Origin: Candidatus Jordarchaeum sp. LHC_1308 | GTDB taxonomy: Archaea > Asgardarchaeota > Jordiarchaeia > Jordiarchaeales > Freyrarchaeaceae | Length of the DNA: 64,000 bases | Assembly: GCA_019057675.1 (NCBI GenBank) | Contig: JAHLWX010000002.1 | Location: forward strand, 5,239 to 69,238 | Direction of reading: 5' to 3' | In this document: one piece after another, positions 11 through 49,982 of the stretch | Numbering within the stretch: the stretch's first letter is position 1 | Layout of the letters: the number at the start of each line of letters is the position of its first letter | Notes under the pieces: generated by a model | Databases searched by the model: none | What the model saw: only the letters and a program-made list of their open reading frames with translations | Told to the model about the DNA's origin: nothing | Made by a program: the position numbers and the translations under genes

Positions 11-727
11 GTGAATGATGAAAAGTGGTTCTTAGGAAGGGAAGAGCCAATGGAAGTAATAGAGGAGATAAATAGTGTTAATACTTTGTTAAAGGAAATC
101 TGCGGGAGGGTGGAGTCTGTCAATCATAAGGTAGCTGAAATAACTTACATTCTAGCATCCAGAGACAGGGAAATAGAGGAGAAAAACGCAGAAATAAATA
201 GGCTTAGTTCTATTTTGAAAACTAAAGAAGAAGAGTTAAACAAAATTAAATCTGACATTGAGAGGTTACAAAAGGAACTTGAAATTACTAGAGAAAACTT
301 GGCAAAAACAGAAAGAACATTGGAAGCAACTAAAGAAACAGTCACCGCAAAGGACGAAGAACTAGCCAAGGTGTTGAAAGAGAGAAACAAGCTTGAGGAG
401 GAATTAAAATCTATAAGGGAGCAGCTTTCAAGAATCTCAAAAATGTACCGAGAAATGACTAAGGAGAAAGAGGAAATCGAAGATGTAAGGCGGCTTCTTT
501 CGATATACATAACTTTGCTTGAGGATGTCTTCGGTGGGCAACCTCACGCTAAGGTTCTATACTTGCTTCATGGCGCTAAAAATGTCATGAAACGCAAAGA
601 AATAACTGAAGCTGCTGGCTTTCAACCCGCAGTAATCTTAAAGAGTATCCATGACTTAGCTAACGCCAAACTTGTAGAGTACAATTTAGAAAGTGAAGAA
701 GTACGATTGATCAGAAGAATATACTAG
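11..727 (+). CDS. Coiled-coil protein with C-terminal winged-helix-like domain (paralog A of a family that recurs in this window); possible GTG start at 11
   Basis: Long heptad-rich Glu/Lys helical region, then a C-terminal ~60 aa with a wHTH-like pattern ending EEVRLIRRIY; the C-terminal pattern is shared with ORFs 38011..38676(-) and 42586..43320(+). Confidence 0.5.
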   Translation: MNDEKWFLGREEPMEVIEEINSVNTLLKEICGRVESVNHKVAEITYILASRDREIEEKNAEINRLSSILKTKEEELNKIKSDIERLQKELEITRENLAKTERTLEATKETVTAKDEELAKVLKERNKLEEELKSIREQLSRISKMYREMTKEKEEIEDVRRLLSIYITLLEDVFGGQPHAKVLYLLHGAKNVMKRKEITEAAGFQPAVILKSIHDLANAKLVEYNLESEEVRLIRRIY

Positions 728-34852: not shown

Positions 34853-35210
34853 GGGTGGTGGTGTAGGCGGGCGGCTAGGGGTCGCCTGATGGGGAAGCAT
34901 TGCTTCCCTTGACCGCAAACCCTCTTATGGCGGGCCGAAAGCCGGCGTGAGGCGTTCGTCAACCGTCACATCCCCTTCACGTTAAGGCGATGAAAACTCG
35001 TCCCAGAGGGCTAGCGGCGTCCGTCCGTCCTCCGTAGGGAGGACATGTTCGGTCTCTACTAGGGGAAACTGGCCAGGCCCGGGAGAGCTTGTCACGGCCC
35101 CGATGGAGCAACCTAACCCTAGACGCGTGGCGCTTCTGGGGAAGCGGGTTTGAGACCAAATGTGAAGGGTGTGGCGGGAGAGGTCGTCGATCGCCGGGAC
35201 CACCACCCGC
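34853..35210 (+). ncRNA. ffs: Signal recognition particle 7S RNA (probable)
   Basis: ~358-nt GC-rich (~62%) non-coding island; 5' GGGUGGUGG pairs with 3' CCACCACCC; contains helix-8-like CCAGGCCCGGGAGAGC and GGAGCAAC motifs; followed by a T5 terminator; no RNase P P4 consensus. Confidence 0.5.
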
Positions 35211-37528: not shown

Positions 37529-38014
37529 TTGTCAAACGAGAGAAAGTTTGAAATAGACGTTGAAGTGATAAAGACTCCGGCAGGTAATGTTCCAACAGCT
37601 AAGACAGTTGAGAGAATAATTGAAGGAATGAACGTTTTAAGTGAGGATTTGAGTTCTGTCTCTTCTTCATTATCTGAATCCCTAAAGCATATTACTACTG
37701 AGTTGAAAAGTATTAAAAAAATGATGTCAAAAACTACCGTTTCCTCTGAGGCAACCATGGAGGCCGTTAAGAGGCTGGAGAAGAAAATCAACCAGTTCTC
37801 TAAGGAAGAAGCTGAAAGGTGGAGGCGCCTCCAGCAAGTCCTCACACTAATAACGGAAGTCCTTAAAGTCATTCACAACGAGGTGAACGAGAAAAGCATC
37901 AGGACAACATCAAAAATAGACAAGCTACTATCCCTGCTAGCTCCCACTACACCTGCAAAAACAGTTCCAGCAAAGCTGGATAAACCAGCAAAGCCCCTCA
38001 AAAAGGTTACCTAA
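37529..38014 (+). CDS. Coiled-coil hypothetical protein (partner of 38011..38676)
   Basis: 161 aa; predicted all-helical with Ser/Thr-rich segments and a basic Pro/Lys tail; 4-nt convergent overlap with the next gene. Confidence 0.4.
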   Translation: MSNERKFEIDVEVIKTPAGNVPTAKTVERIIEGMNVLSEDLSSVSSSLSESLKHITTELKSIKKMMSKTTVSSEATMEAVKRLEKKINQFSKEEAERWRRLQQVLTLITEVLKVIHNEVNEKSIRTTSKIDKLLSLLAPTTPAKTVPAKLDKPAKPLKKVT

Positions 38015-38676
38015 CCACTTTTCCCGCCGAACAAATCCTCGTTAAGCCTCACCTCATCTCCATTCAACCTTACTATTCCCATCCTTTCCATTCTAGCCAA
38101 AACAAGTTTCACTTGTCCCTCAGAAACCCCCATCGTCTTAGACAAGTCTGTTACCTTGCATCGACCTATGCTTTTCAAAATGAAATACGGCTTATAATTG
38201 ATGTCGCCTTCTATTAGCTTCTCAAGCGAGCTTAAAAGCTCCTCCAGCCTCTTTCTCTCCTCCTCTAAACTGGAAACTTTCTTTCTCAAATATTCAACTT
38301 CCCCTCCAAGCTCTCCTATTCTTTCTTCCTTAGCAAGTATCTCTCCCTTTAACCTTGAGATTTCGGCTTGAAGCATTTCCTCACTAAGCCTCTTATCCTC
38401 CTCAAGACGCCTAAGCTTAAGCTTTTCCTCCTCAAGCATCATCTCCAACTTCTTTTTCTCACGGGAAGCCTCCTCCATGGAATCCAATACCTTCTCAAGC
38501 CGTTTAACTTCTCCCTCACGCTCTCTCCTAGCCGCATCAAACCTTGTTCTCCACTCTTCAACCTCTCTCTCAAGCTCCTCTATGCGCGCCTTCTGCCTCT
38601 TAATCTCCTCCCCCTGTTTTTCCAACTTAGCCTCCAAGATTCTTAGGGCCTCCATCCTTCCCTCAGGCTCCCCCAA
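38011..38676 (-). CDS. Coiled-coil protein with C-terminal winged-helix-like domain (paralog B)
   Basis: 221 aa; extreme E/K/R coiled-coil, then C-terminus YFILKSIGRCKVTDLSKTMGVSEGQVKLVLARMERMGIVRL...EVRLNE matching paralogs A and C. Confidence 0.5.
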   Translation of the reverse strand: MGEPEGRMEALRILEAKLEKQGEEIKRQKARIEELEREVEEWRTRFDAARREREGEVKRLEKVLDSMEEASREKKKLEMMLEEEKLKLRRLEEDKRLSEEMLQAEISRLKGEILAKEERIGELGGEVEYLRKKVSSLEEERKRLEELLSSLEKLIEGDINYKPYFILKSIGRCKVTDLSKTMGVSEGQVKLVLARMERMGIVRLNGDEVRLNEDLFGGKSG

Positions 38677-38821: not shown

Positions 38822-39160
38822 CTATGCCTTGAACCTTTCAGCTATTTCTCTGGCTTTCTTCAAGCTTCCTGTAACTTTTTTTACGTCAGTTAGGACGGGC
38901 GTGCCAGATACCTCTGAAATCATGCTTACCCCTGCATGTACTATGTCAACGGTTTTATGTGTACAGCGTAGTATGCCGAAACCTGACTGTTTATTGTACT
39001 CGATGAATCTCAGGTTCATGAGGCTAACCCCAACTTCACCGAAAAGTTTGAGCAGTGTGCTCCATAGACTTCGAGCTACATCTTCGTATTCGAGCTCTTG
39101 TTCGCTTATAACTTGGAAGATGATGTACCGTGCTCTGTCACTTAGCTTTGCTCCGACCAA
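38822..39160 (-). CDS. rnp2: RNase P protein subunit Pop5 (Rpp14)
   Basis: 112 aa; RYIIFQV...FG...G..R.I-style Pop5 pattern; adjacent to Rpp30. Confidence 0.7.
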   Translation of the reverse strand: MVGAKLSDRARYIIFQVISEQELEYEDVARSLWSTLLKLFGEVGVSLMNLRFIEYNKQSGFGILRCTHKTVDIVHAGVSMISEVSGTPVLTDVKKVTGSLKKAREIAERFKA

Positions 39161-39177
39161 ATATACGTCACTCCTCT

Positions 39178-39846
39178 CTAGGCTTCTTCTCTAACTCCTT
39201 CGTAGCCTCTCCATTCTAATATAATTGAAGGATAGAAGGAGATTGCTCTTACTGCTGCTTCTCTAGGAATTCCAAGGAGACGCGCTACAGCTATGAGGCT
39301 TCTAGGAGAACGCAGTTCATATTCTGTCTTAGGCTCTCTGGTTATGAAAAAAACGGCTCCTTTTTCCAGCAAAACTGTGACAGCTTTTCTGAGCGTTGAG
39401 AATGCTTGTACACGTTTTGCTCCTTCCTTTTCGAAGAGGGGGGATAGCGAGAGCTCGACAGCTGTCCTTCCCTCATAGGAAAGTTTGACAAGAGAATTAT
39501 CTAAGTACTTGTAATGTTCGAGGGATGGAAAGTAAATGATGTCCACATCAGGATTTCGGGCAGCCCACGTGGCCACCTCCCTGTTCATGCATGGAACAGC
39601 CACCAGATCCGCTTTTTTCCTTTCTTCGCTTAGTCTTTTCTTTATCTGAGATAAATTTTCCCCTTCAAGATCCCTTCTCGAGAATACTTCAATCCCTTCG
39701 GCTTTTTCTCCCCCGTTTGTTGCGAAAAGAACGCTAAATCCCAACTTGCTCGCGAGCTCAAGGAACCTTTGCTTGGAGGACACTGAGCTGAAGTGCACGT
39801 GTGTTTCAGCGAATCTCAGTCTACTATTAGGTTGTGCCTCCTGCAT
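39178..39846 (-). CDS. rnp3: RNase P protein subunit Rpp30
   Basis: 222 aa; PHP-like TIM-barrel pattern of Rpp30 (ETHVHFS ... DLVAVPC ... DVDIIYFP). Confidence 0.7.
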   Translation of the reverse strand: MQEAQPNSRLRFAETHVHFSSVSSKQRFLELASKLGFSVLFATNGGEKAEGIEVFSRRDLEGENLSQIKKRLSEERKKADLVAVPCMNREVATWAARNPDVDIIYFPSLEHYKYLDNSLVKLSYEGRTAVELSLSPLFEKEGAKRVQAFSTLRKAVTVLLEKGAVFFITREPKTEYELRSPRSLIAVARLLGIPREAAVRAISFYPSIILEWRGYEGVREEA

Positions 39847-40256
39847 ATTTCACGTATCTCCTCAAGCTCTCTTCTAGAGAACTTAACCTTGACTTTGACA
39901 ACGTCCTCATAATCGCTTAAATACACTTCCCCCAGATACGCCTTCTGCTTGTCGAAACGAAGGTAAATGTTTCCATGTCCATTATGTCTTAGAGCTAACT
40001 GCTTCTCTAGCCTTTTCTTATCTTCCTCATTCATCAACGAGGCCAGCCGGTCAATAACTTCTTCAGCCTCCCCCCTCCCGGATACCTTCACTCTATAGAT
40101 TACCACTTCATTACCATAGTGTCCCCTAATTTTTTCCTCTTTGATTTCTCCCCTATTGTTTGAAAGAAAAAGTAGCGCTTTCAAGACCTTTTCAGAGTCC
40201 TCCGTTGAGTGAACAAAAACTTCAAACTCCACGCTGGATAAGTCTTTACTATCCAA
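39816..40256 (-). CDS. Conserved archaeal protein, possibly DUF54/COG1325-like predicted RNA-binding protein of the exosome/RNase P superoperon
   Basis: 146 aa; N-terminal FEVFVHSTEDSEKVLKAL motif; sits between rpl15e and rpp30. Confidence 0.4.
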   Translation of the reverse strand: MDSKDLSSVEFEVFVHSTEDSEKVLKALLFLSNNRGEIKEEKIRGHYGNEVVIYRVKVSGRGEAEEVIDRLASLMNEEDKKRLEKQLALRHNGHGNIYLRFDKQKAYLGEVYLSDYEDVVKVKVKFSRRELEEIREICRRHNLIVD

Positions 40257-40272
40257 TCTTCACACCAATTTT

Positions 40273-40872
40273 TTAATCGTAGTACTTCTCACGGCTCGGT
40301 CTAACCTTCTCGGCGCCCTTCCCCTTCTTCCTTAGGGCTCTCGCTCTTTTGCCGCTACTCGTAAGTCCTCTGAATACTCTGCTACGGTGTGCTTTGCTAC
40401 AGATCCAGTTTATTTTCAGGTCGGACTTTATGGCTGGATGGTGTGGGTCGACCAAGATGACTTCAAACCACTTCCACCTGCCGTCCTCCCCGACATAATA
40501 CGAGTTAAGAACCTCCATGTTTGGATACTTGCGGGCAACTCTTTCCTCGGCAATCCATTGAATGTTTTTTCCAGGTGTTTTTTTAGTTACGCCTAGTCCC
40601 TTTGGCTTCCTGCCACTCCTAGGCCTAGGCTTCCTCAATCCTCCCTTACGAACTCGAACCCTAACTACGATAAAGCCCTGTTTAGCCCTGTAACCAAGCC
40701 TCCTCGCCCTATCCGGCCTAGTAGGTCTTTCCACTCTTACGATAACTGGCTGCTTACGCCAGAGTATCAATCTTTCATGTAAAAATGATTTTATATCGCC
40801 TTTCTTACCCACTATCTCTCTCCAGCTCTCTGAAATGTAACTGTACATTGACTTCACCATGTTTACGTCCAC
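40273..40872 (-). CDS. rpl15e: 50S ribosomal protein L15e
   Basis: 199 aa; strongly conserved L15e sequence ([11 protein letters not shown]...[10 protein letters not shown]). Confidence 0.9.
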
Positions 40873-41515
40873 TCCTCAGAACCACTTTCGACTAAAAGTC
40901 TACTTCCCCCCATAACACAATCTCCTTTTATAGTTTACCGTTACTGAAGGGCACAATACTCTAAAAGGGAGAGTACTAGGCAGCCTAAAACTAATGAATA
41001 TGGCTGTGCTGAGTGAAGTAAGTGATTTCAAGTCCGGGTCAAATACTGAAAGCATTTCTCTTTTGTTGACTGAAGTAGTATCTAAATTCAGGATAGCGTC
41101 TATTCTCTAGGACTAATAGGGGAAAGAGTTCCTGAAGCCTGAAGACGGCTAGCAATAAAGGTGAAATGCGTCAAAAGGGACATGAGCATCTTAAAGCAAG
41201 TTGCAATCATGGGAACAGAGAAAACCAGTAAGAATCGCCTTTAGTCATTCTGAACTGGACAAAAGATGGGAAATGCCATCGTGAACGACTTCATTCTTTT
41301 TAGATTCAAGCTGCATCGTGGAAGCTTGAAGAACTCCAGCATACTAGAGAAAACACCCGGTAAGTTAATACTTTTATATTCTTCACAGGAATCGAATCTC
41401 TGGCAGGGAGTGCAGTTTTTCATACGTCATAGGGGAAACATAAACTACGTCTAAAGGAAGTTGAAAACAAAACATATATGGTGTTAAGGTCGTTAACGCA
41501 ACAAACACCTATTTT

Positions 41516-42274
41516 TCATCGTTCTTCCCTCAGGCTGCTTATTTTTTCCTCTATTTCTTTCATTTCTCTTAGCTTGGCGTTCAGCGCATCTTTTTCTTCA
41601 ACCCCTCCAAGTCCCATGTCGATCAACATCTGCAAGCTTGAAATTTCTCCTTTAAGTTTAGCTCGTCTTGCCTCAAGCCGTGCTATCTCCTTCATTTTTT
41701 CAACATCCTTAGTTGAAGGGAAGACAGGCTCCTCCTCCCTCGTAACCTCCTCGCTTCTCTTGACAATTGCCTCCTCCACGCTTGCAGATACATTGGTCTG
41801 CTCTCGAATTTCGGTGCTTCTCTCTTGGACTTTAACTTCCTTATCCTCCTCCACCCATTCTTTTCCTGCTACTTTCCTCCCCTCTTCAATTTTGTCTTCT
41901 CGCCTCTCGAGAAGGGAAGTGAACCGCTCCTCCAGGCTTATGAGACTTTCATTCAGCATTCTTAATTGATCACGGAGCATAAGTACTTCCTTCATTATGC
42001 TCAACTTAAAATCTGCCACTTCCTTTTCCATTCTTATAACTACATCCTCGACCTTTTCCATCCGCTCTAATACTGGCTTCAAGGTTCCGTAAACATCTTT
42101 AGCATTCTCCGTGAGAGAATCGACTTTTGCCATATGCTCTAATACTGGCTTCAGGGCTTCCCTGAATGCCGCCACAATTTTTTCGATGTTCCTGCTAATC
42201 AATAACTCTCCAAGCCCACTTATAATGGCGTCCACATCCACCGCAGTCCCCTTACCTGAATCTGCCGGGTTCAC
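41516..42274 (-). CDS. Coiled-coil hypothetical protein with internal repeats (partner of 42586..43320)
   Basis: 252 aa; heptad-rich; repeated LKPVLE(H/R)M(A/E)KV(D/E) modules encoded by repeated DNA around 42060-42160. Confidence 0.45.
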   Translation of the reverse strand: MNPADSGKGTAVDVDAIISGLGELLISRNIEKIVAAFREALKPVLEHMAKVDSLTENAKDVYGTLKPVLERMEKVEDVVIRMEKEVADFKLSIMKEVLMLRDQLRMLNESLISLEERFTSLLERREDKIEEGRKVAGKEWVEEDKEVKVQERSTEIREQTNVSASVEEAIVKRSEEVTREEEPVFPSTKDVEKMKEIARLEARRAKLKGEISSLQMLIDMGLGGVEEKDALNAKLREMKEIEEKISSLREER

Positions 42275-42585
42275 TTTAACCCCTCCAATGCCCCCTTCTC
42301 AACTGCAAAATCAGCTTCAAATAACCTGTTATGAAATCCCTGTTATTAAACTGTTTCTGCCTATAACTTTTTCATATCTTTTTGTGTTTTAATGTCTAAC
42401 TTAAACGACCATCTAGTAATTATTTCAGTAATTTCCCGAGGAGAATTGATAATTTGCCATTTACCAACGCATATCTTTCCATTTTGGGCTCTACTTCTTT
42501 GAGAGAAAAATAATTATTAGACCAAAATGATAATAGTATAAATTGCATTTGTTCTCGAGTAGAATTAAACTAGAATGGTGGTTGA

Positions 42586-43320
42586 ATGACGGCTTCACAG
42601 CAAGCGCCGCTTCAAAGCGAAGAAGCCGCCTCTAAAACTCAAAAGTTAATCGAGTTGCTCGCGCCAGTTAAGGAACATGTGATACGTAATATTCTGGCAA
42701 GGTTTCCCATGCGTGGATTAGAGCAAATACTTCGTGAGACATTTGACAGTGCAGTTACCGAAAACATAGAATTATTCTCCAGTTTCATTAATTCCACCCC
42801 CCCGGAAGGAGGCAGAGATCCAAGCAAGCATCAGTCGCAGAAGGAGCAAGAGGGAGGACAGTTAAAGGCGGCAATGCTGGAAGCCAAAGAGCTTCTAAAG
42901 AATCCTCCTTCAGAGAGTGAGGAAAAAGGAGAGCCGCTTAAAGAGGATCTTTCACGTTTAAAGAGAGAGATTGATCGCTTAGTTCTCGAACTGAAGATTA
43001 AAGATAAGAAGCTTAGAGAGCAGGAAAAGCTTCTGGAAAAGTTGCGCGTGATTGCCGAAAACGGGCTGATACCCGTTTTCGAAAATACTTCGTCATCCAA
43101 TATTGAAGTTCGTTCCTTCTGGAAACGTCTAGGTGAATTCTTAGAAAAAGATCCGAAATTCAAAATCTTGCGTCTCCTTGTGGGCGTGAAGGAAGCTAAT
43201 GTAGACAGCATCTACAAGTCTGTCGGAACGCACAGGGAATTGGTGGCAAAGTGTCTTGAGGAGATGAAAAATGCGAACTTGATAAAAGTTACAGGAGAAA
43301 GCATAAGCCTGAACTTATAA
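42586..43320 (+). CDS. Coiled-coil protein with C-terminal winged-helix-like domain (paralog C)
   Basis: 244 aa; central coiled coil, C-terminus KFKILRLLVGVKEANVDSIYKSVGTHRELVAKCLEEMKNANLIKV matching paralogs A and B. Confidence 0.5.
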   Translation: MTASQQAPLQSEEAASKTQKLIELLAPVKEHVIRNILARFPMRGLEQILRETFDSAVTENIELFSSFINSTPPEGGRDPSKHQSQKEQEGGQLKAAMLEAKELLKNPPSESEEKGEPLKEDLSRLKREIDRLVLELKIKDKKLREQEKLLEKLRVIAENGLIPVFENTSSSNIEVRSFWKRLGEFLEKDPKFKILRLLVGVKEANVDSIYKSVGTHRELVAKCLEEMKNANLIKVTGESISLNL

Positions 43321-43322
43321 AA

Positions 43323-43649
43323 TTACCGCCGTTTTCCAACTTTAAGTTTGTTAAGCGGTATTCTGTAAGCTCCCTCTCTGTCTGACACTATAGGCGGGGC
43401 ACCCTTGAAAAGTGCTTCAATATCTATTTCAAACACTCCTCTACGCAGAATTCTCACGGTTTCCAACTTATCTTCTTCACTTCGCGTCATAGGAAGCAGA
43501 TTCTTCTCTTCCTCCTTTTTCTCCTCTTTTACTTCGCGCATAAGTTTGAAGACGTTAGAGCCGCACGCCGGGCAGTTCAGTTCATTATGACCTTGAGGCA
43601 TCCTTTTGCCACATACCACACAGACATTATAGAAACTCACTTCGTACAC
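43323..43649 (-). CDS. Zn-ribbon protein (DUF2072-like)
   Basis: 108 aa; CVVCG...CPACG zinc ribbon, then a charged region. Confidence 0.55.
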   Translation of the reverse strand: MYEVSFYNVCVVCGKRMPQGHNELNCPACGSNVFKLMREVKEEKKEEEKNLLPMTRSEEDKLETVRILRRGVFEIDIEALFKGAPPIVSDREGAYRIPLNKLKVGKRR

Positions 43650-43954
43650 CCCACCGTGTATGCCAGAGATATGAAGTCTCCTTCCCTCGTTACCTCTACG
43701 ATGTCGGATGGTGCCACAACAGTTATTTTGCCCCCCTTCTTCTCTCCGTTAAATGTGATTACTTCTATTCCATTAAACTCCTTGAAGTCAATCTCCAACA
43801 TGGTTTCCTTTATGAGTTCAACTTGCTCCTCAGGCTTTAGCCTCTCCTCCAAAATCAATATTCTTTTTCCCTTCACTCTTTCAATGATCATTCTAACTTT
43901 ATCGTTGGGACTTAATCTCCTAGTAGCCTTCTCGGAGATTATATCTATTTTCAA
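43637..43954 (-). CDS. DUF2073-like conserved archaeal protein
   Basis: 105 aa; overlaps the Zn-ribbon gene by 13 nt and follows the GTPase gene (conserved triad arrangement). Confidence 0.45.
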   Translation of the reverse strand: MKIDIISEKATRRLSPNDKVRMIIERVKGKRILILEERLKPEEQVELIKETMLEIDFKEFNGIEVITFNGEKKGGKITVVAPSDIVEVTREGDFISLAYTVGCTK

Positions 43955-43966
43955 GATGGCACCCTC

Positions 43967-44572
43967 CTAGCAGGACTCTGCTATCACCTTATAAAGCTCC
44001 TCCATGTTGTCTCCTTTAAGAGCGGATACGCATACAACCTTGTAACCCGGGAAGGACTCCTTTATAAGCTCAGGTCGCGCCTCTGGAAGGTCTATCTTGT
44101 TCGCGACGAGAATCGTCGGTATCCTTTTAGCCTTCAAATTTCCCAATATTACGAGGTTAACTTGGTCGAAAGGAACCTTCGTTGCATCAAAAACAGTTAA
44201 AGCTAAATCTATGTTATCAAGCCACTGTATGGCCTCTATGACGCCACGTGTAGCCTCTTTAGCTCTCTCCACAGCCTCCTCTTCGCTTAACCCGTGCCTC
44301 ATGAAATCCCTGTAATCCACTTTGCTAGCTATTCCCGGCATGTCGACCAAGTCAACGTTAACTCCCTTACCGTTAAACCTTATGTTGACCTGTCTCACAA
44401 TGGTTGCCTTCCTCGTCTCGTGGGGTATAGGCGATACGGTGCCAACTTCAACACCTGAAAAGTCCAAGGATATCCTGTTCGCAAGAGTGGTCTTGCCAGC
44501 ATTAGGCGGCCCGTAAATTCCTAAAATCAAGCTCTGCTTTTTCTTAAACATCTTCGAAATTTTGTCGAGCAA
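43967..44572 (-). CDS. Small TRAFAC-class GTPase
   Basis: 201 aa; G1 GPPNAGKT, G3 DMPG, G4 NKID, G5 SAL. Confidence 0.8.
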   Translation of the reverse strand: MLDKISKMFKKKQSLILGIYGPPNAGKTTLANRISLDFSGVEVGTVSPIPHETRKATIVRQVNIRFNGKGVNVDLVDMPGIASKVDYRDFMRHGLSEEEAVERAKEATRGVIEAIQWLDNIDLALTVFDATKVPFDQVNLVILGNLKAKRIPTILVANKIDLPEARPELIKESFPGYKVVCVSALKGDNMEELYKVIAESC

Positions 44573-44647: not shown

Positions 44648-45235
44648 ATGGTTTTAAGCGTGAATAATACAATGAAAACATTAAAACACGCTTCAGGTAG
44701 CCGCAATGGAGGTATCTGTTTGTTAAGGAAAAAGGTGATACGTCTGACATTCGTTTTTCTAGTCGCGTTATCCTTTACTGTTGGCTTAACTCCAACAGGA
44801 TTAGCTTCCCTACTGGGAGCCAACATGACAAAAATATACTTCGCTCCGTTAAACCAATCGGTCGAATATCCGCCTCCATGGGATACGTTTTATTACTTCT
44901 ACTCTGTGATTCTTGGCTACAATGGATATGCGCTAGACCTTAATGTGATCCTAATAGTAGATGTAAGGAAGGGATCCCCTTACGGGGAACTGGCTGGTGA
45001 TCATAGTTTTGCGTATGACATGGCACTGTTTATGCAGCCCGGAAGCCTGAAGCTTCTGAACCTCTCCTTATCCGTTCCAGCATCCGAAATCGAGGCTGCG
45101 GCTAATGGTAGCCCCCTTTGGATGACTATAACCACTGTGGCATGGTTCACCACTTGGTTCATGGGAAATATCCAAATTATAACGCCAACTGTTATTAGAA
45201 CCCTTATACCTCTACATGTACTACTCACGAAGTGA
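44648..45235 (+). CDS. Hypothetical secreted/membrane-anchored protein
   Basis: N-terminal hydrophobic anchor (LTFVFLVALSFTVGL), then a probable extracytoplasmic domain; start likely at an internal Met. Confidence 0.4.
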   Translation: MVLSVNNTMKTLKHASGSRNGGICLLRKKVIRLTFVFLVALSFTVGLTPTGLASLLGANMTKIYFAPLNQSVEYPPPWDTFYYFYSVILGYNGYALDLNVILIVDVRKGSPYGELAGDHSFAYDMALFMQPGSLKLLNLSLSVPASEIEAAANGSPLWMTITTVAWFTTWFMGNIQIITPTVIRTLIPLHVLLTK

Positions 45236-45698
45236 GGCGACAACCTTGAAGAAGCAACTTGATAGACCTGCTGTGAGAGCCCTTCTTATGTCCTCCTTAA
45301 CGTTTCTCTCGACAGCCGTGGCGCCAGCCCTAGGAAAGAGTCTTGCACAGCGGTTCAACCTATTCATTCAACTTTTGGATCCGCTCGTCATAGGATTAAT
45401 AGGAGCAGTCGTGAGTGTCATGGTTTTCCTAGACAACTTCTTCCGCCGTTCAAACCCTGTCTTAAGTGGGGTCTTCGGCACGCTCAACAACCTTATTGGA
45501 TTAATCTATATGTTAGTTTTCGCCGAAATGTTAACTAGCATAAGCATTCCTGTAACCCAGATTTTCTACAGCTCTTTAACGTTCGTAACAATAAACTATC
45601 AGCCAATAGTAACTCTCATCATAATAGTATTCGTCGTCAGAATGTTACGTCACTTCTACCAAATACTCTTCCACGAGCAACTAAAGGAAGTAGCTTAG
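45216..45698 (+). CDS. Hypothetical integral membrane protein
   Basis: 160 aa with 3-4 predicted TM helices; overlaps the preceding gene by 20 nt. Confidence 0.45.
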   Translation: MYYSRSEATTLKKQLDRPAVRALLMSSLTFLSTAVAPALGKSLAQRFNLFIQLLDPLVIGLIGAVVSVMVFLDNFFRRSNPVLSGVFGTLNNLIGLIYMLVFAEMLTSISIPVTQIFYSSLTFVTINYQPIVTLIIIVFVVRMLRHFYQILFHEQLKEVA

Positions 45699-45776: not shown

Positions 45777-47147
45777 TTGGTAGAGATCAAGGAAATCCTC
45801 CCTGGGCGATTCGAGAGAATAGGAGCCCACTCCCACGTAAAGGGGCTCGGGCTACGGGGGCTCAAGGCTGAGCTGGTTGCCGATGGCATGGTTGGCCAAA
45901 CCGAGGCGAGGGAAGCGGCGGGCATAGTGGTCAGAATGATAAAGGAGGGAAAAATGGCGGGAAGAGCAGTGCTCTTAGCAGGTCCACCCGGAACGGGTAA
46001 AACCGCCATAGCGATTGCTATAGCCAAGGAACTCGGCCCAGACGTCCCCGTCGTGATGATCACAGGATCAGAAATATACTCCGAGGAGGTTAAGAAGACA
46101 GAGATCCTAACACAAGTGATGAGGAAGGCGATAGGAGTCAGGATACATGAGATGAAAAAGATATACGAGGGCGTCGTTAAGAACTTGGACGTGACAATGG
46201 CCAAGAATCCCTACAACCCGTACCAGCAAATTCCCCAGTCGGCGAAGATAACCATAGCTACGAAAGACGAGTCTAAGACTTTTGAGGTTGGACAAACTAT
46301 AGCAATGCGCATTATAAATGAAGGCATCAGCGTGGGCGACGTAATAATGATAGACGCGGAGACAGGCAGAGTTACCCGCCTCGGAAAGGCTGAGTCACCT
46401 GATGTCAAGCGATATGACATAGAATCTGAGGAACCAGTACCTATACCGACAGGTTCCATATTGAAGGAGAAAGAGTTCATCTACACACTGACACTCCACG
46501 ACCTTGATGAGATAAACGCTAGGAGAAGCAGCTTCTCCCTTTTCAGCATCTTCGGAGGCGGAAGAGAAGAGAAAGAAATCGACCCAGAGATACGGGAAAG
46601 AGTAAACCAGCTAGTGAAGAACATGGTCGAGGAAGGACGAGCAGAGATACTACCAGGTGTCTGCTTCATCGACGAGAGCCACATGCTCGACGTTGAAGCT
46701 TACAGTTTCATTGCGAGAGCTATGGAGTCAGACCTAGCACCAATCATAATACTGGCATCGAACAGGGGGTTCACGAAGATAAGAGGAACAGAGTTGGTGT
46801 CGCCTCACGGAATTCCCCTAGACCTGCTGGACAGACTTCTCATAATCAATACACGACCATACAAGGAGGAGGAAATCAGGGAAATAATCAAAATAAGGGC
46901 GAAAGAAGAAAAGATAGAGATGGAAGGGGAAGCACTAGAATATCTGACCCAAATAGGAGTAAAGACCAGCCTCCGCTATGCAGTGCAACTCCTGACGCCA
47001 AGCATGGAGCACGCCAAAGAGAATGGACGCGGGAAAATAACCAAGGAAGACGTGCAAGCGGTAGAGGCGCTCTTCGTGGACGTCAAGCGTTCCGCCAACT
47101 ACGTGAGAAGCCTCGAAAAAGAATTCATGATCTCAGAGCAATCATGA
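45777..47147 (+). CDS. TIP49 / RuvB-like AAA+ ATPase (TBP-interacting protein)
   Basis: 456 aa; conserved RuvBL N-terminus (IGAHSHVKGLGL...MVGQ..AREAAG), Walker [10 protein letters not shown], domain II insertion, Walker B DESH; TTG start. Confidence 0.85.
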   Translation: MVEIKEILPGRFERIGAHSHVKGLGLRGLKAELVADGMVGQTEAREAAGIVVRMIKEGKMAGRAVLLAGPPGTGKTAIAIAIAKELGPDVPVVMITGSEIYSEEVKKTEILTQVMRKAIGVRIHEMKKIYEGVVKNLDVTMAKNPYNPYQQIPQSAKITIATKDESKTFEVGQTIAMRIINEGISVGDVIMIDAETGRVTRLGKAESPDVKRYDIESEEPVPIPTGSILKEKEFIYTLTLHDLDEINARRSSFSLFSIFGGGREEKEIDPEIRERVNQLVKNMVEEGRAEILPGVCFIDESHMLDVEAYSFIARAMESDLAPIIILASNRGFTKIRGTELVSPHGIPLDLLDRLLIINTRPYKEEEIREIIKIRAKEEKIEMEGEALEYLTQIGVKTSLRYAVQLLTPSMEHAKENGRGKITKEDVQAVEALFVDVKRSANYVRSLEKEFMISEQS

Positions 47148-47791: not shown

Positions 47792-48994
47792 ATGGCCCTC
47801 TCTGCCGAAGCCCCGTCCTCCTCTGGGCTAGAAGATGCATTTTCTTATCTGCCTCACGTTTTCCCTCTACTGAGAGCAAAAATGGAAAACGCTAATTTGC
47901 GTAACAGAGCACGATATTATGTAGTAGTTTTCGTAAGTTTTTTGACTTGCTTTGTCTCGTTCTGTTTTTGGGTGGTTATAGTGTTTAGGCGGGTTGTTTG
48001 GTCTTCTGTTTTTCTTGATCCTAAGCGGGGTTTTGAGCGCGTATATCTACCTGTTGAGGCTAGGTTTGACCCGTTGACTGGTAGGGTGTGCGTTGTTTCG
48101 GAACTTCGCTTCAGTCTTCCTATGAAAGCTGACTTTTCAGAGCTAGCCAGAGTTACTGAGGCTTTCTGCCCCTTCTGCCCTGAGAAGGTTGAGGCGGCTA
48201 CGCCGAGGTTTCCGGAGGAGTTCGTTCCGGGTGGGCGGATAAGAGTTGGTGAGGCTGTTGTAGTACCCAACCTCATGCCATACTCGCAGCATAGCGCGGT
48301 AACCGTGATCTCTCGGAAACACTTCCTCACTCTAACAGATTTCACACAGGATCTTCTGGTTAATGCCTTTATGGCTTCGCAAGAGTACCTTGAAAGGGTA
48401 GCTCTTTACAATGTGTCACAGAAGCACTTCCTCATAGTCTGGAACTTCATGCCTCCCTCAGGAGGTAGCATAATTCACCCTCACCTTCAACCAGTTAGCT
48501 ATGATGAACCCATGGGATACTACGCGAAACAGCTTGAGGCGTCAAAGAAGTTTTACGAGGAGCACGGATACAGTTTCTGGCAACACCTCGTGGAAGAAGA
48601 AAAACGACTGGGAGAACGATATATCGGAGCAACTGGCTCCGTCCAATGGCTCACAGCTTTCGCCCCGAGAAACTACCTCTTCGAAGTCACCGCCGTATTC
48701 CCCGAGAGAACATCTATACTCGAACTAGGACGAAATAACATAAACGACTTCGCCGAAGGACTAATAAAAATCCTAAACTACATGAACGCGCTGAACGTAT
48801 CCAGCTTCAACCTAACCCTCCAGTCAGGATCACCAGATGAAAAACACTACAGGGTTAACGCGTCAATAATACCCAGATTTACGCTACCACCACTAGGCAC
48901 ATCAGACACAGCCTCCCTCCGAGCATTAAACGACCTTTCAGTATGCTACAAGAAGCCGGAGACCACATGCACAGAGCTCAAACAGTACTTCTAA
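47792..48994 (+). CDS. Galactose-1-phosphate uridylyltransferase-like nucleotidyltransferase (HIT superfamily)
   Basis: CPFCP zinc motif, DPLTG, and HIT-like HPHLQ (HxHxQ); 5' part of the ORF (47792-48000) is a TG-rich low-complexity tract, so the true start is probably near a GTG at ~47981. Confidence 0.65.
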   Translation: MALSAEAPSSSGLEDAFSYLPHVFPLLRAKMENANLRNRARYYVVVFVSFLTCFVSFCFWVVIVFRRVVWSSVFLDPKRGFERVYLPVEARFDPLTGRVCVVSELRFSLPMKADFSELARVTEAFCPFCPEKVEAATPRFPEEFVPGGRIRVGEAVVVPNLMPYSQHSAVTVISRKHFLTLTDFTQDLLVNAFMASQEYLERVALYNVSQKHFLIVWNFMPPSGGSIIHPHLQPVSYDEPMGYYAKQLEASKKFYEEHGYSFWQHLVEEEKRLGERYIGATGSVQWLTAFAPRNYLFEVTAVFPERTSILELGRNNINDFAEGLIKILNYMNALNVSSFNLTLQSGSPDEKHYRVNASIIPRFTLPPLGTSDTASLRALNDLSVCYKKPETTCTELKQYF

Positions 48995-49885: not shown

Positions 49886-49982
49886 GCGGGCGTAGTCCAG
49901 CCTGGTCTAAGACGTCGGCCTGCCACGCCGAGGACCCGGGTTAGGGCATTGTCCCCTCGAACGAATCCCGGCGCCCGCACCA
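49886..49982 (+). tRNA. tRNA-Gly (anticodon GCC) with putative ~19-nt non-canonical intron in the T-loop
   Basis: Acceptor GCGGGCG/CGCCCGC, A73, encoded CCA; anticodon arm UCGGC-CUGCCAC-GCCGA; 4-nt variable loop; T-stem CCGGG/CCCGG encloses 26 nt = UU + AGGGCAUUGUCCCCUCGAA + CGAAU (UUCGAAU when the insert is removed). Confidence 0.7.

Follow-up and report, generated by a model that had tools for sequence, protein, structure and literature searches.

A coiled-coil/winged-helix protein family of Asgard archaea, represented by three paralogues in one genomic region of Candidatus Jordarchaeum

Small archaeal proteins that join a winged-helix (wH) domain to a coiled coil have been described in the Sulfolobales. 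Lrs14 and Sul10a/Sso10a are nucleoid-associated dimers with one wH per chain plus a coiled-coil helix, and they structure or bridge DNA (PMC11841832, PMC12529230). The wH of these families is N-terminal and the coil spans a few dozen residues. In CRP/FNR proteins a C-terminal winged helix-turn-helix (wHTH) follows immediately after a dimerising helix, with two heads at one end of a parallel pair; CRP also bears an N-terminal cyclic-nucleotide β-barrel, and its C-helix is short. In CdvB, an ESCRT-III protein, a helical part is followed by a wH at the C-terminus; the adjacent gene encodes CdvA, which is likewise helical and ends in a conserved peptide, E3B (PMC10936438, PMC12818579). Finally, arCOG09748 proteins from Thermococcales ESCRT loci comprise an N-terminal helical part, a coiled coil, a globular domain and a C-terminal wH, and have no assigned function (Makarova et al. 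2024, PMC10936438).

We analysed a stretch of 64,000 nucleotides from Candidatus Jordarchaeum sp. LHC_1308 (contig JAHLWX010000002.1; hereafter the window) that encodes three coiled-coil/winged-helix (CC-wH) proteins. The main gene of this study, CC-wH copy 1, lies at 38011-38676 on the minus strand, starts with TTG and encodes 221 residues. Its AF2 model has a pLDDT of 88.5. According to DSSP, residues 4-156 (38209-38667, minus strand) form a single continuous α-helix (block pLDDT 90-97), a coiled-coil stalk that would measure about 23 nm if straight and in which heptad periodicity is strong (z = 14.7). Residues 157-221 (38014-38208, minus strand) form the wH module, canonical in fold, with the order H1-S1-H2-H3-S2-S3 and an NYKPYFILKS motif. 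Conservation is bipartite, comprising the N-terminal tip of the rod and the C-terminal module. In the alignment, the tip columns (residues about 5-39, 38560-38664, minus strand; E..EAL..LE....Q..I..Q..RI.ELE..V) are invariant across Jordarchaeales and a divergent lineage at 31-34% overall identity, and the start of the recognition helix (E186-G187-Q188) is invariant as well; the middle of the stalk is variable and tolerates an indel. Within Jordarchaeales, orthologues are 60-76% identical. The 221-aa protein is a rod made up of a conserved tip of ~40 residues, a variable single-helix stalk of ~150 residues and a basic C-terminal wH head. The tip may be a partner-binding or higher-order assembly site.

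The wH heads have a pI of 8.9-9.5, against 5.0-5.9 for the stalks (5.2 in copy 1), and their net positive charge is modest. Foldseek gave DNA- and RNA-binding wH domains as the closest folds to the head (MarR, IclR, ArsR, CRP, SelB, Zalpha), with several CRP/GlxR/FNR chains among the matches; all structural neighbours returned were generic wH domains, such as those of MarR/IclR/ArsR type. The wings are short in all three copies and their tips neutral or acidic (NGD, TGE, NLESEE). Such wings count against DNA binding, and many DNA-binding wH domains have basic ones.

No curated Pfam or NCBIfam family accommodates the CC-wH architecture, in agreement with the earlier note, which had not recognised it as a characterised one. 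For the regulators of the MarR/ArsR/IclR/TrmB type, the copy 1 head reaches no gathering score: TrmB (PF01978) gave 17.7 bits (E 3.4e-3, residues 163-204; gathering score 25.6), MarR (PF01047 and PF12802) gave 17.3 and 13.8 bits (24.6 and 27), and ArsR/SmtB (PF01022, HTH_5) gave 15.2 bits (22). The same holds on copy 2 for ArsR NF033788 (17 bits, cutoff 55) and HTH_Crp_2 (14.4 bits, cutoff 27), and HTH_24, Fe_dep_repress and Csa3 were further sub-threshold head matches. Copy 1 also departs from these regulators in layout: its head is C-terminal to a long N-terminal coiled-coil rod, its wing is short and not basic, and it has neither a ligand-binding domain nor the MarR-type dimerisation domain of N- and C-terminal helices, the AF2 model showing one long helix only. 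SMC, Rad50 and ASRP resemble it in their heptad-rich E/K/R/L composition and in weak HMM matches, but the ATPase heads are missing: the 221-aa, single-helix protein has neither of the ABC ATPase head halves that flank the antiparallel coil in those proteins. The matches are confined to the coil and score no more than about 36 bits, where the cutoffs lie between 300 and 1000 (ASRP 36.2 against 300, SMC 26.5 against 729). ScpB was absent among the best 25 of 37 Pfam matches at E <= 1, and the model has one wH, not the tandem wH domains of ScpB. Across all five proteins of interest in the window, Pfam, NCBIfam, PHROGs and PADLOC yielded only sub-threshold wHTH matches and matches of coiled-coil composition (tape-measure, LmuB/JetC, SMC). 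PDB sequence and profile searches with three of the alignments yielded coiled-coil noise or nothing.

The described systems compare with copy 1 as follows. Lrs14 and Sul10a/Sso10a are the nearest analogue in the sense of working alike, should CC-wH have an architectural role; they differ in their N-terminal wH and in a coil far shorter than the roughly 150 residues of copy 1, they are crenarchaeal whereas copy 1 is Asgard, and no sequence relationship was detected. CdvB/CdvA offers the best precedent for a partnership between a tail and a wH. However, the Pfam matches listed for copy 1 (E <= 1) include no Snf7/ESCRT-III domain, the continuous helix 4-156 is not the Snf7-type hairpin of ESCRT-III, no Vps4 was found among the neighbours examined and no PRC-barrel gene nearby, and the partner at this locus is not conserved. 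The arCOG09748 proteins are likewise archaeal and combine a coiled coil with a C-terminal wH, but their description sets them apart: they have an extra globular central domain, occur in Vps4/ESCRT-III loci and carry a wH like that of CdvB/Vps22.

The two other CC-wH genes of the window are copy 2 (42586-43320, plus strand, 244 aa) and copy 3 (11-727, plus strand, 238 aa), the latter belonging to the 'PHAK-motif' core type, which extends across Asgard classes. A module profile that includes all three copies scored them at 96.9, 87.2 and 131.7 bits (copies 1 to 3) and found no fourth gene in the window. Pairwise BLAST among the three proteins gave no significant match; profile comparisons with hhalign gave probabilities of 83-90%, and the C-terminal modules by themselves scored 35.4, 34.1 and 24.5 against maxima of 16.8, 18.5 and 15.6 in column-shuffled nulls. 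The alignment of the three C-terminal regions claimed in the earlier note is thus upheld; its family proposal stands, with the domains aligning in a profile search and no known family matching confidently. The coiled-coil character claimed there holds for copy 1 and copy 3 (z = 23.3 in the latter) but not for copy 2 as a whole (z = 3.5). Copy 2 begins with a conserved helical domain, which a variable linker joins to a coil that is merely short and precedes the wH module.

Copy 2 stands head to head with the gene of a 252-aa helical, acidic protein (41516-42274, minus strand; internal 72-nt tandem duplication at 42048-42156) across a 311-nt spacer, and an inverted repeat lies in this divergent promoter region (42412-42425 / 42508-42521). 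On its other side, copy 2 converges with oapC/arvC at a gap of 2 nt; current work attributes a function in vesicle formation to the Oap genes. A replication-origin context for copy 2 was considered and rejected: Orc1/Cdc6 is missing among the tested neighbours, ORB-like repeats are lacking, and the skew does not turn near 41-44 kb. A linkage of copy 3 to profilin and DNA ligase was set aside as well, being confined to close relatives (5/53 loci).

Searching 1.84 billion representatives with the module profile for the phyletic distribution of the C-terminal domain returned 157 clusters at E <= 1e-3, 82 of them at E <= 1e-10. All matches that carry a name are Asgard (Jord/Frey, Odin, Borr, Prometh, Hermod, Hod, Heimdall, Hel and Thor). 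Genes of the core type, that of copy 3, were found in 53 of 185,579 GTDB species, and the named species are again Asgard except for one 'Thermoproteota' label, which is probably a mislabel. Among named matches, the family therefore appears to be restricted to Asgard archaea, and to occur in nearly every Asgard class. Its architecture is stable: a wH module of ~90 residues sits almost always at the extreme C-terminus, as it does in copies 1, 2 and 3 and in independent members with scores down to about 35 bits. The N-terminal parts consist of 35-55% E/K/R/Q, with P/G at 6% or less in most members, and the coiled coil varies in length from about 80 to >700 residues; of the three copies here, copy 2 is the one with weak heptad periodicity. 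Some members are labelled 'chromosome segregation ATPase' by JGI, an artefact of coiled-coil composition, and one from Odinarchaeia is labelled 'winged helix-turn-helix transcriptional regulator' by NCBI.

Fusions and gene order in the family point toward nucleic acids. In Hod and Heimdall proteins the same wH module is fused to HHH_5 and a MutS_V ATPase domain, above Pfam cutoffs. Core-type genes occur in the order unk322 > CC-wH > XerA in 18 loci, where the neighbouring recombinase scored 283 bits against NCBIfam recomb_XerA_Arch (cutoff 220), and in the order Top6B > Top6A > CC-wH > unk349 in about 9 loci, where the genes are spaced by -4 to +47 nt. Both orders concern copy-3-type genes in other Asgard classes, not copy 1: the association is absent from the core-type loci of Jord/Frey/Baldr/Borr/Atabey, and no XerA or Topo VI gene was found in the 64-kb window. 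Moreover, part of the XerA signal may be plain synteny, because the same block also holds the unrelated genes Dph2 and GNAT. The unk322 and unk349 proteins matched nothing in PDB, Pfam or NCBIfam, and no relation was found between them and the 161-aa or 252-aa proteins of the window. For the DNA-tethering or segregation role that had been proposed at the outset, the fusions and gene orders provide support that is indirect and holds at the level of the family.

At the copy 1 locus, the gene of a 161-aa helical protein (37529-38014, plus strand, TTG start) meets copy 1 tail to tail. Base by base, the reading frames and the 4-nt overlap reported earlier were confirmed: positions 38011-38014 read C-T-A-A, the 161-aa gene stopping with TAA at 38012-38014 and the 221-aa gene with TAG on the minus strand (the reverse complement of 38011-38013). 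SD-like GGAGG/GAGGTG motifs precede both genes, and both are under purifying selection (dN/dS against orthologues about 0.10-0.19 for the 161-aa gene and about 0.11-0.17 for the 221-aa gene). A few nt beyond the stop of the 221-aa gene, the minus strand carries five consecutive T. The AF2 model of the 161-aa protein (pLDDT only 64) contains a β-hairpin (13-22), a helical hairpin (24-67/73-121), a further helix (126-137) and a disordered Pro/Lys tail that ends in an invariant AKPLKK; the pI is 9.7 overall and 10.3 in the tail.

The earlier note had treated these two genes as a unit that recurs at 41516-43320, and comparison across lineages did not support this, except that the second site does hold a CC-wH gene, copy 2. 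The 161-aa gene is a genuine gene restricted to Jordarchaeales: its six homologues all come from Jordarchaeales/Freyarchaeota, it is missing from the five loci L007, L066, L067, L009 and L010, and no 161-like ORF was found in 53 core-family loci. In a divergent lineage, a JAB/MPN gene occupies the convergent slot beside the copy-1-type gene. The second site is divergent, neither convergent nor overlapping, and homology of its 252-aa protein to the 161-aa protein was not demonstrable (BLAST E 2e-4 over 86 aa; hhalign probability merely 18-21%). Homologous partners across lineages were thus not found for a two-gene coiled-coil/CC-wH module. The overlap geometry is identical in four loci (L001, L002, L003 and L004); since these close relatives share the gene order of the entire region, the adjacency is uninformative, and its retention does not strengthen the case for a functional link. 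The convergent 4-nt overlap reflects compact local synteny, and a physical partnership of the 161-aa protein with copy 1, to which these comparisons lend no support, is unlikely.

The conserved feature of copy 1 is instead its place behind an L15e-PF01877-Rpp30-Pop5 cluster (38822-40872, minus strand; Pfam labels from orthologous loci), which lies upstream and runs in the same direction. This order is found in Jordarchaeales and in the divergent loci L007 and L066 (38-45% module identity). Between Pop5 and copy 1 there is a gap of 145 nt in the window, 100-180 nt across loci, that includes an AT-rich, TATA-like stretch, ATAATTATAAAT. An Rfam search at the copy 1 locus gave no match, and promoter- and terminator-like sites there showed no excess over shuffle expectation.

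Our main reading, to which we assign a probability of roughly 0.4, is that the product of CC-wH copy 1 is a rod-shaped dimer that tethers nucleic acid or has an architectural function. The stalk is assumed to form a parallel homodimer, which would bring the two wH heads together at one end. The predicted target of the heads is nucleic acid, double-stranded DNA being the likeliest, and the distal N-terminal tip would touch another structure. On this view the protein would serve chromosome handling as a tether or architectural factor and not as a ligand-sensing regulator, and copy 1 would be a housekeeping gene, vertically inherited behind the L15e-RNase P gene cluster. An extended proposal, which we hold to be unlikely as a whole, makes CC-wH an Asgard-specific chromosome-handling adaptor: rigid dimeric rods would grip DNA, or DNA-bound XerA/Topo VI, with their C-terminal wH heads and dock by their conserved N-terminal tips on a cytoskeletal, membrane or division structure, coupling decatenation and dimer resolution to segregation. 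Jordarchaeales would have three or four specialised paralogues for this, and copy 1 would have recruited the basic-tailed, lineage-specific 161-aa protein as a rod-modulating partner.

The same data can be read in other ways. If the head were a protein-protein module, as in ESCRT-II, CdvB and cullins, the family would consist of cytoskeletal, membrane-remodelling or GTPase-pathway rod adaptors that join two protein machines. The neutral or acidic wing tips fit such a role, as do some neighbours: profilin adjoins copy 3 in Jord/Frey, the ArvABC vesiculation GTPase operon converges with copy 2, and Roadblock/LC7 is found close to a fourth paralogue, in Frey, and also in loci of Thor. Yet the profilin adjacency covers only 5/53 loci, all from close relatives, and that of ArvABC stays within Jordarchaeales, whereas the best structural neighbours are nucleic-acid binders, the fusions involve DNA-associated domains, and gene order ties the family most tightly to XerA and Topo VI; we find this reading improbable. 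We would also be surprised if CC-wH proteins were ordinary dimeric wHTH transcription regulators, with copy 1 regulating itself or its neighbours and the coil serving for dimerisation only. Dimerisation needs far less than a stalk of 150 residues whose distal tip is conserved separately, the stalk extends to more than 700 residues elsewhere while the head stays C-terminal, there is no ligand-binding domain, and the copy 1 locus yielded no repeated motif resembling an operator. These points have to be set against the sub-threshold TrmB, MarR, HTH_24, ArsR, Fe_dep_repress and Csa3 matches of the head, the likeness of its fold to MarR/IclR/ArsR, the NCBI regulator label in Odinarchaeia and the inverted repeat between copy 2 and its divergent neighbour.

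Two further explanations are specific to copy 1. A dedicated heterocomplex with the 161-aa protein, for example through docking of the AKPLKK tail on the wH head or the acidic stalk, comparable to the CdvA E3B peptide and the CdvB wH, would account for complementary charges (pI 9.7, tail 10.3, against 5.2 for the stalk), the invariant terminal peptide, the purifying selection on both genes and a convergent overlap kept wherever a Jordarchaeales locus is complete at this point. We nevertheless regard it as distinctly unlikely: the partner is confined to Jordarchaeales/Freyarchaeota, a JAB/MPN gene fills its slot in the divergent lineage, the 53 core-family loci have no counterpart, convergent genes are not co-transcribed, and the second 'pair' differs in geometry, its partners having no demonstrable homology. 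The L15e-PF01877-Rpp30-Pop5 order, kept across lineages at 31-34% protein identity, might suggest that copy 1 binds RNA or associates with RNPs in ribosome or RNase P biology. The gap behind Pop5, with its TATA-like stretch, suggests a separate transcription unit, though, and the paralogues occur in unrelated contexts; the archaeal exosome/RNase P superoperon, moreover, collects functionally unrelated housekeeping genes, which counts against this reading, and we consider it highly improbable.

For annotation, the lesson is that 'Chromosome segregation ATPase' labels on such genes are coiled-coil artefacts and that the convergent overlap seen here is not a functional module. To our knowledge, chromosome organisation and segregation in Asgard archaea are essentially unknown, a matter relevant to how the eukaryotic cell arose. 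Because of its spread through nearly every Asgard class, its fixed architecture, its adjacency to XerA or Topo VI in several classes and its fusion to an HhH-MutS-like ATPase, the CC-wH family is a concrete candidate in this field that is cheap to test, and its proteins are small and soluble-looking. If the reading as a chromosome-handling adaptor were true, it would place a coupling of decatenation and dimer resolution to segregation in the lineage from which eukaryotes arose.

ORF calling and base-level reading bore out both genes of the pair described in the earlier note, and their 4-nt tail-to-tail overlap: bases 38011-38014 are C-T-A-A, shared by the TAA stop of the 161-aa gene (37529-38014, + strand) and the TAG stop of the 221-aa coiled-coil/winged-helix (CC-wH) gene (copy 1; 38011-38676, - strand). 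Both genes start with TTG downstream of an SD-like motif and both are under purifying selection (dN/dS 0.10-0.19 for the 161-aa gene, 0.11-0.17 for the 221-aa gene), and we therefore consider them real. The window derives from an Asgard archaeon of the order Jordarchaeales: orthologues of the 221-aa protein are labelled Candidatus Jordarchaeales, the closest genome locus being that of Jordarchaeales isolate JZ-1_202007_bins_29.

The AF2 model of copy 1 (pLDDT 88.5) shows a single unbroken helix (residues 4-156) and, after it, a canonical winged helix (wH; H162-170, E172-174, H175-182, H186-198, E202-205, E208-211). Heptad periodicity of the hydrophobic residues reaches z = 14.7, a very strong signal; the stalk has an acidic pI of 5.2, the head a basic one of 9.3. 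When copy 1 is aligned with its divergent-lineage relatives (overall identity 31-34%), conservation lies at two ends, the N-terminal tip (E..EAL..LE....Q..I..Q..RI.ELE..V) and the NYKPYFI-wH module, while the middle is variable and tolerates an indel. Such a bipartite pattern would fit a spacer rod with a functional end at each extremity. No Pfam or NCBIfam model reached its cutoff (TrmB 17.7 vs 25.6, MarR 17.3 vs 24.6, ASRP 36 vs 300) and PDB sequence searches returned nothing besides coiled-coil noise, in agreement with the initial reading of an uncharacterised family.

A profile search found three CC-wH genes in the window, with no fourth: copy 1, copy 2 (244 aa; 42586-43320, + strand) and copy 3 (238 aa; 11-727, + strand). 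Pairwise BLAST among the three proteins gave nothing significant; hhalign with profiles made from orthologues linked them with probabilities of 83-90%. The C-terminal modules by themselves scored 35.4, 34.1 and 24.5, above the column-shuffled maxima (16.8, 18.5 and 15.6), and hence the C-terminal alignment first proposed by eye holds. A profile of this module from all three paralogue groups, searched against 1.84 billion representative proteins, matched 157 clusters at E <= 1e-3 and 82 at E <= 1e-10. In matches scoring about 35 bits or more, the module forms the very C-terminus and is preceded by an E/K/R/Q-rich, Pro/Gly-poor region of 80-250 (occasionally 400-850) residues. Four matched proteins (P0058, of 581 aa, P0131, P0145 and P0148) have 4-7 tandem module matches and are thus tandem winged-helix repeat proteins.

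Most matches are of the copy-3 ("core") type, with a PHAK motif, which occurs in 53 of the 185,579 GTDB species genomes scanned, Asgard wherever named. Named members of the whole family are all Asgard (Jord/Frey, Odin, Borr, Prometh, Hermod, Hod, Heimdall, Hel and Thor), and on these we provisionally regard it as Asgard-only. One locus labelled Thermoproteota archaeon (JAPDJY010000034.1) is probably mislabelled, since its copy-3 orthologue is 77% identical and shows the profilin-ligase synteny of Jordarchaeales. In the window, copy 3 is convergent with a profilin-like gene (767-1171, - strand; PF00235 20.2 bits, slightly below the 25-bit cutoff), followed by an ATP-dependent DNA ligase; this order is found in 5/53 core loci, all close Jord/Frey relatives.

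The pair had been thought to recur at copy 2. There, the neighbouring gene (252 aa; 41516-42274, - strand) is divergent, with a 311-nt spacer, and no relationship between the 161-aa and 252-aa proteins could be demonstrated (hhalign probability 18-21%). The overlap at copy 1 is kept in all Jordarchaeales loci, but so is synteny over the whole region, and it therefore does not strengthen the case that the two genes work together. In a divergent lineage (three loci, module 38-45% identical) the copy-1-type gene directly follows L15e-PF01877-Rpp30-Pop5 and its convergent neighbour is a JAB/MPN gene, and none of the 53 core loci has a 161-like or 252-like ORF. Two other distant copy-1-like genes, in the Freyarchaeota-type loci L009 and L010 and one of them from Freyarchaeota, lie between Roadblock and PAC2 genes; they constitute a fourth paralogue type (212-258 aa) in a conserved context (Roadblock/LC7, an uncharacterised divergent gene of 288-336 aa, CC-wH, PAC2 proteasome-assembly chaperone). 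Given these replacements, the 161-aa gene fills the slot beside copy 1 in one lineage only, outside any conserved two-gene module, and the pair is unsupported as a functional unit. A dedicated heterocomplex of copy 1 and the 161-aa protein, compatible with other readings, is quite unlikely; physical contact may nonetheless occur, since the basic tail of the 161-aa protein and the acidic stalk are complementary in charge.

The surroundings of copy 2 hold other features. The 252-aa gene contains a 72-nt (24-aa) tandem duplication (42048-42084 and 42120-42156; LKPVLEHMAKV... / LKPVLERMEKV...), missing from its orthologue in the Jordarchaeales locus L001. A 643-nt gap (40873-41515) lies where L001, L003 and L004 (all Jordarchaeales) have two genes between L15e and the 252-aa gene, one of 591-593 aa with faint Adap_comp_sub (adaptin-mu) and CLIPPER matches and one with a metallo-beta-lactamase fold. 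Between the divergent genes, a 14-nt inverted repeat (42412-42425, TCTAGTAATTATTT; 42508-42521, AAATAATTATTAGA; 93% complementary) is either a candidate operator or a coincidence of AT-rich sequence. Copy 2 and oapC are convergent, 2 nt apart; the latter belongs to a complete ArvA/OapA small GTPase-OapB-OapC operon (43323-44572, - strand; Pfam OapB 67.8 bits, OapC 42 bits). This operon drives extracellular-vesicle formation in Haloferax. ArvA is reported from only 8/183 Asgard genomes (PMC10927574), making the window operon a rare Asgard instance. Elsewhere lie an archaeal SRP RNA (34855-35206, + strand; 141.6 bits), a 94-nt tRNA match that probably holds an intron (49886-49979, + strand) and a TIP49/RuvBL-type AAA+ ATPase gene (45777-47147, + strand; PF06068, 475 bits), beside which several ORFs (44648-45235, 45216-45698 and 47792-48994) have no Pfam match.

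Functional clues come from other family members. In three long Hodarchaeota/Heimdallarchaeota members (P0046, P0057/P0184 and P0090; 681-850 aa) the module is fused to an N-terminal HhH (HHH_5) and a MutS domain V ATPase, both exceeding Pfam cutoffs, an unusual MutS-like architecture. When the neighbours in the 53 core loci were clustered without bias, two arrangements recurred. In the first, whose upstream block is common to about 20 loci (Heimdall, Hod, Hermod, Prometh and one Thor), the order is zf-PARP, unk286, Dph2 (all three on the opposite strand), then unk322 > CC-wH > Xer > GNAT; Xer is present in 18 of these loci, and the recombinase matches the NCBIfam archaeal XerA equivalog (283 vs cutoff 220). 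The other, in about 9 Thor and unnamed loci, is Top6B > Top6A > CC-wH > unk349 > Roadblock, the gaps measuring -4 to +47 nt. Each arrangement independently links the core type to chromosome-resolving or -decatenating enzymes. Both are missing from Jord, Frey, Baldr, Borr and Atabey loci and from the window, so they bear on copy 1 through paralogy only. The conserved uncharacterised proteins unk322, directly upstream of CC-wH in the XerA block (L026-L055; Heimdall/Hod/Hermod/Prometh), and unk349, directly downstream in the Topo VI block (L051-L062; Thor), have no match in Pfam, NCBIfam or PDB sequences; further recurrent neighbours of CC-wH in these loci are a TrmB-like protein of 283 aa and Roadblock/LC7 genes.

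Architecture, paralogy, phyletic range, fusions and gene order are established; we infer, with a probability of roughly 0.4, that a parallel dimer would bring a pair of basic wH heads together at the same end, that these heads would bind nucleic acid, and that the distal tip would serve in tethering or in an architectural capacity. Counting against DNA binding are the wings, which are short and neutral or acidic at their tips, and the heads' modest net charge. That the head is a protein-binding adaptor is unlikely, as is, to our minds, a plain transcription factor, and an RNA- or RNP-related role for copy 1 is very unlikely. Copy 1 is best described as one paralogue within an apparently Asgard-specific coiled-coil/winged-helix family, a variation on the wHTH theme, for which a role in chromosome handling is a plausible prediction.
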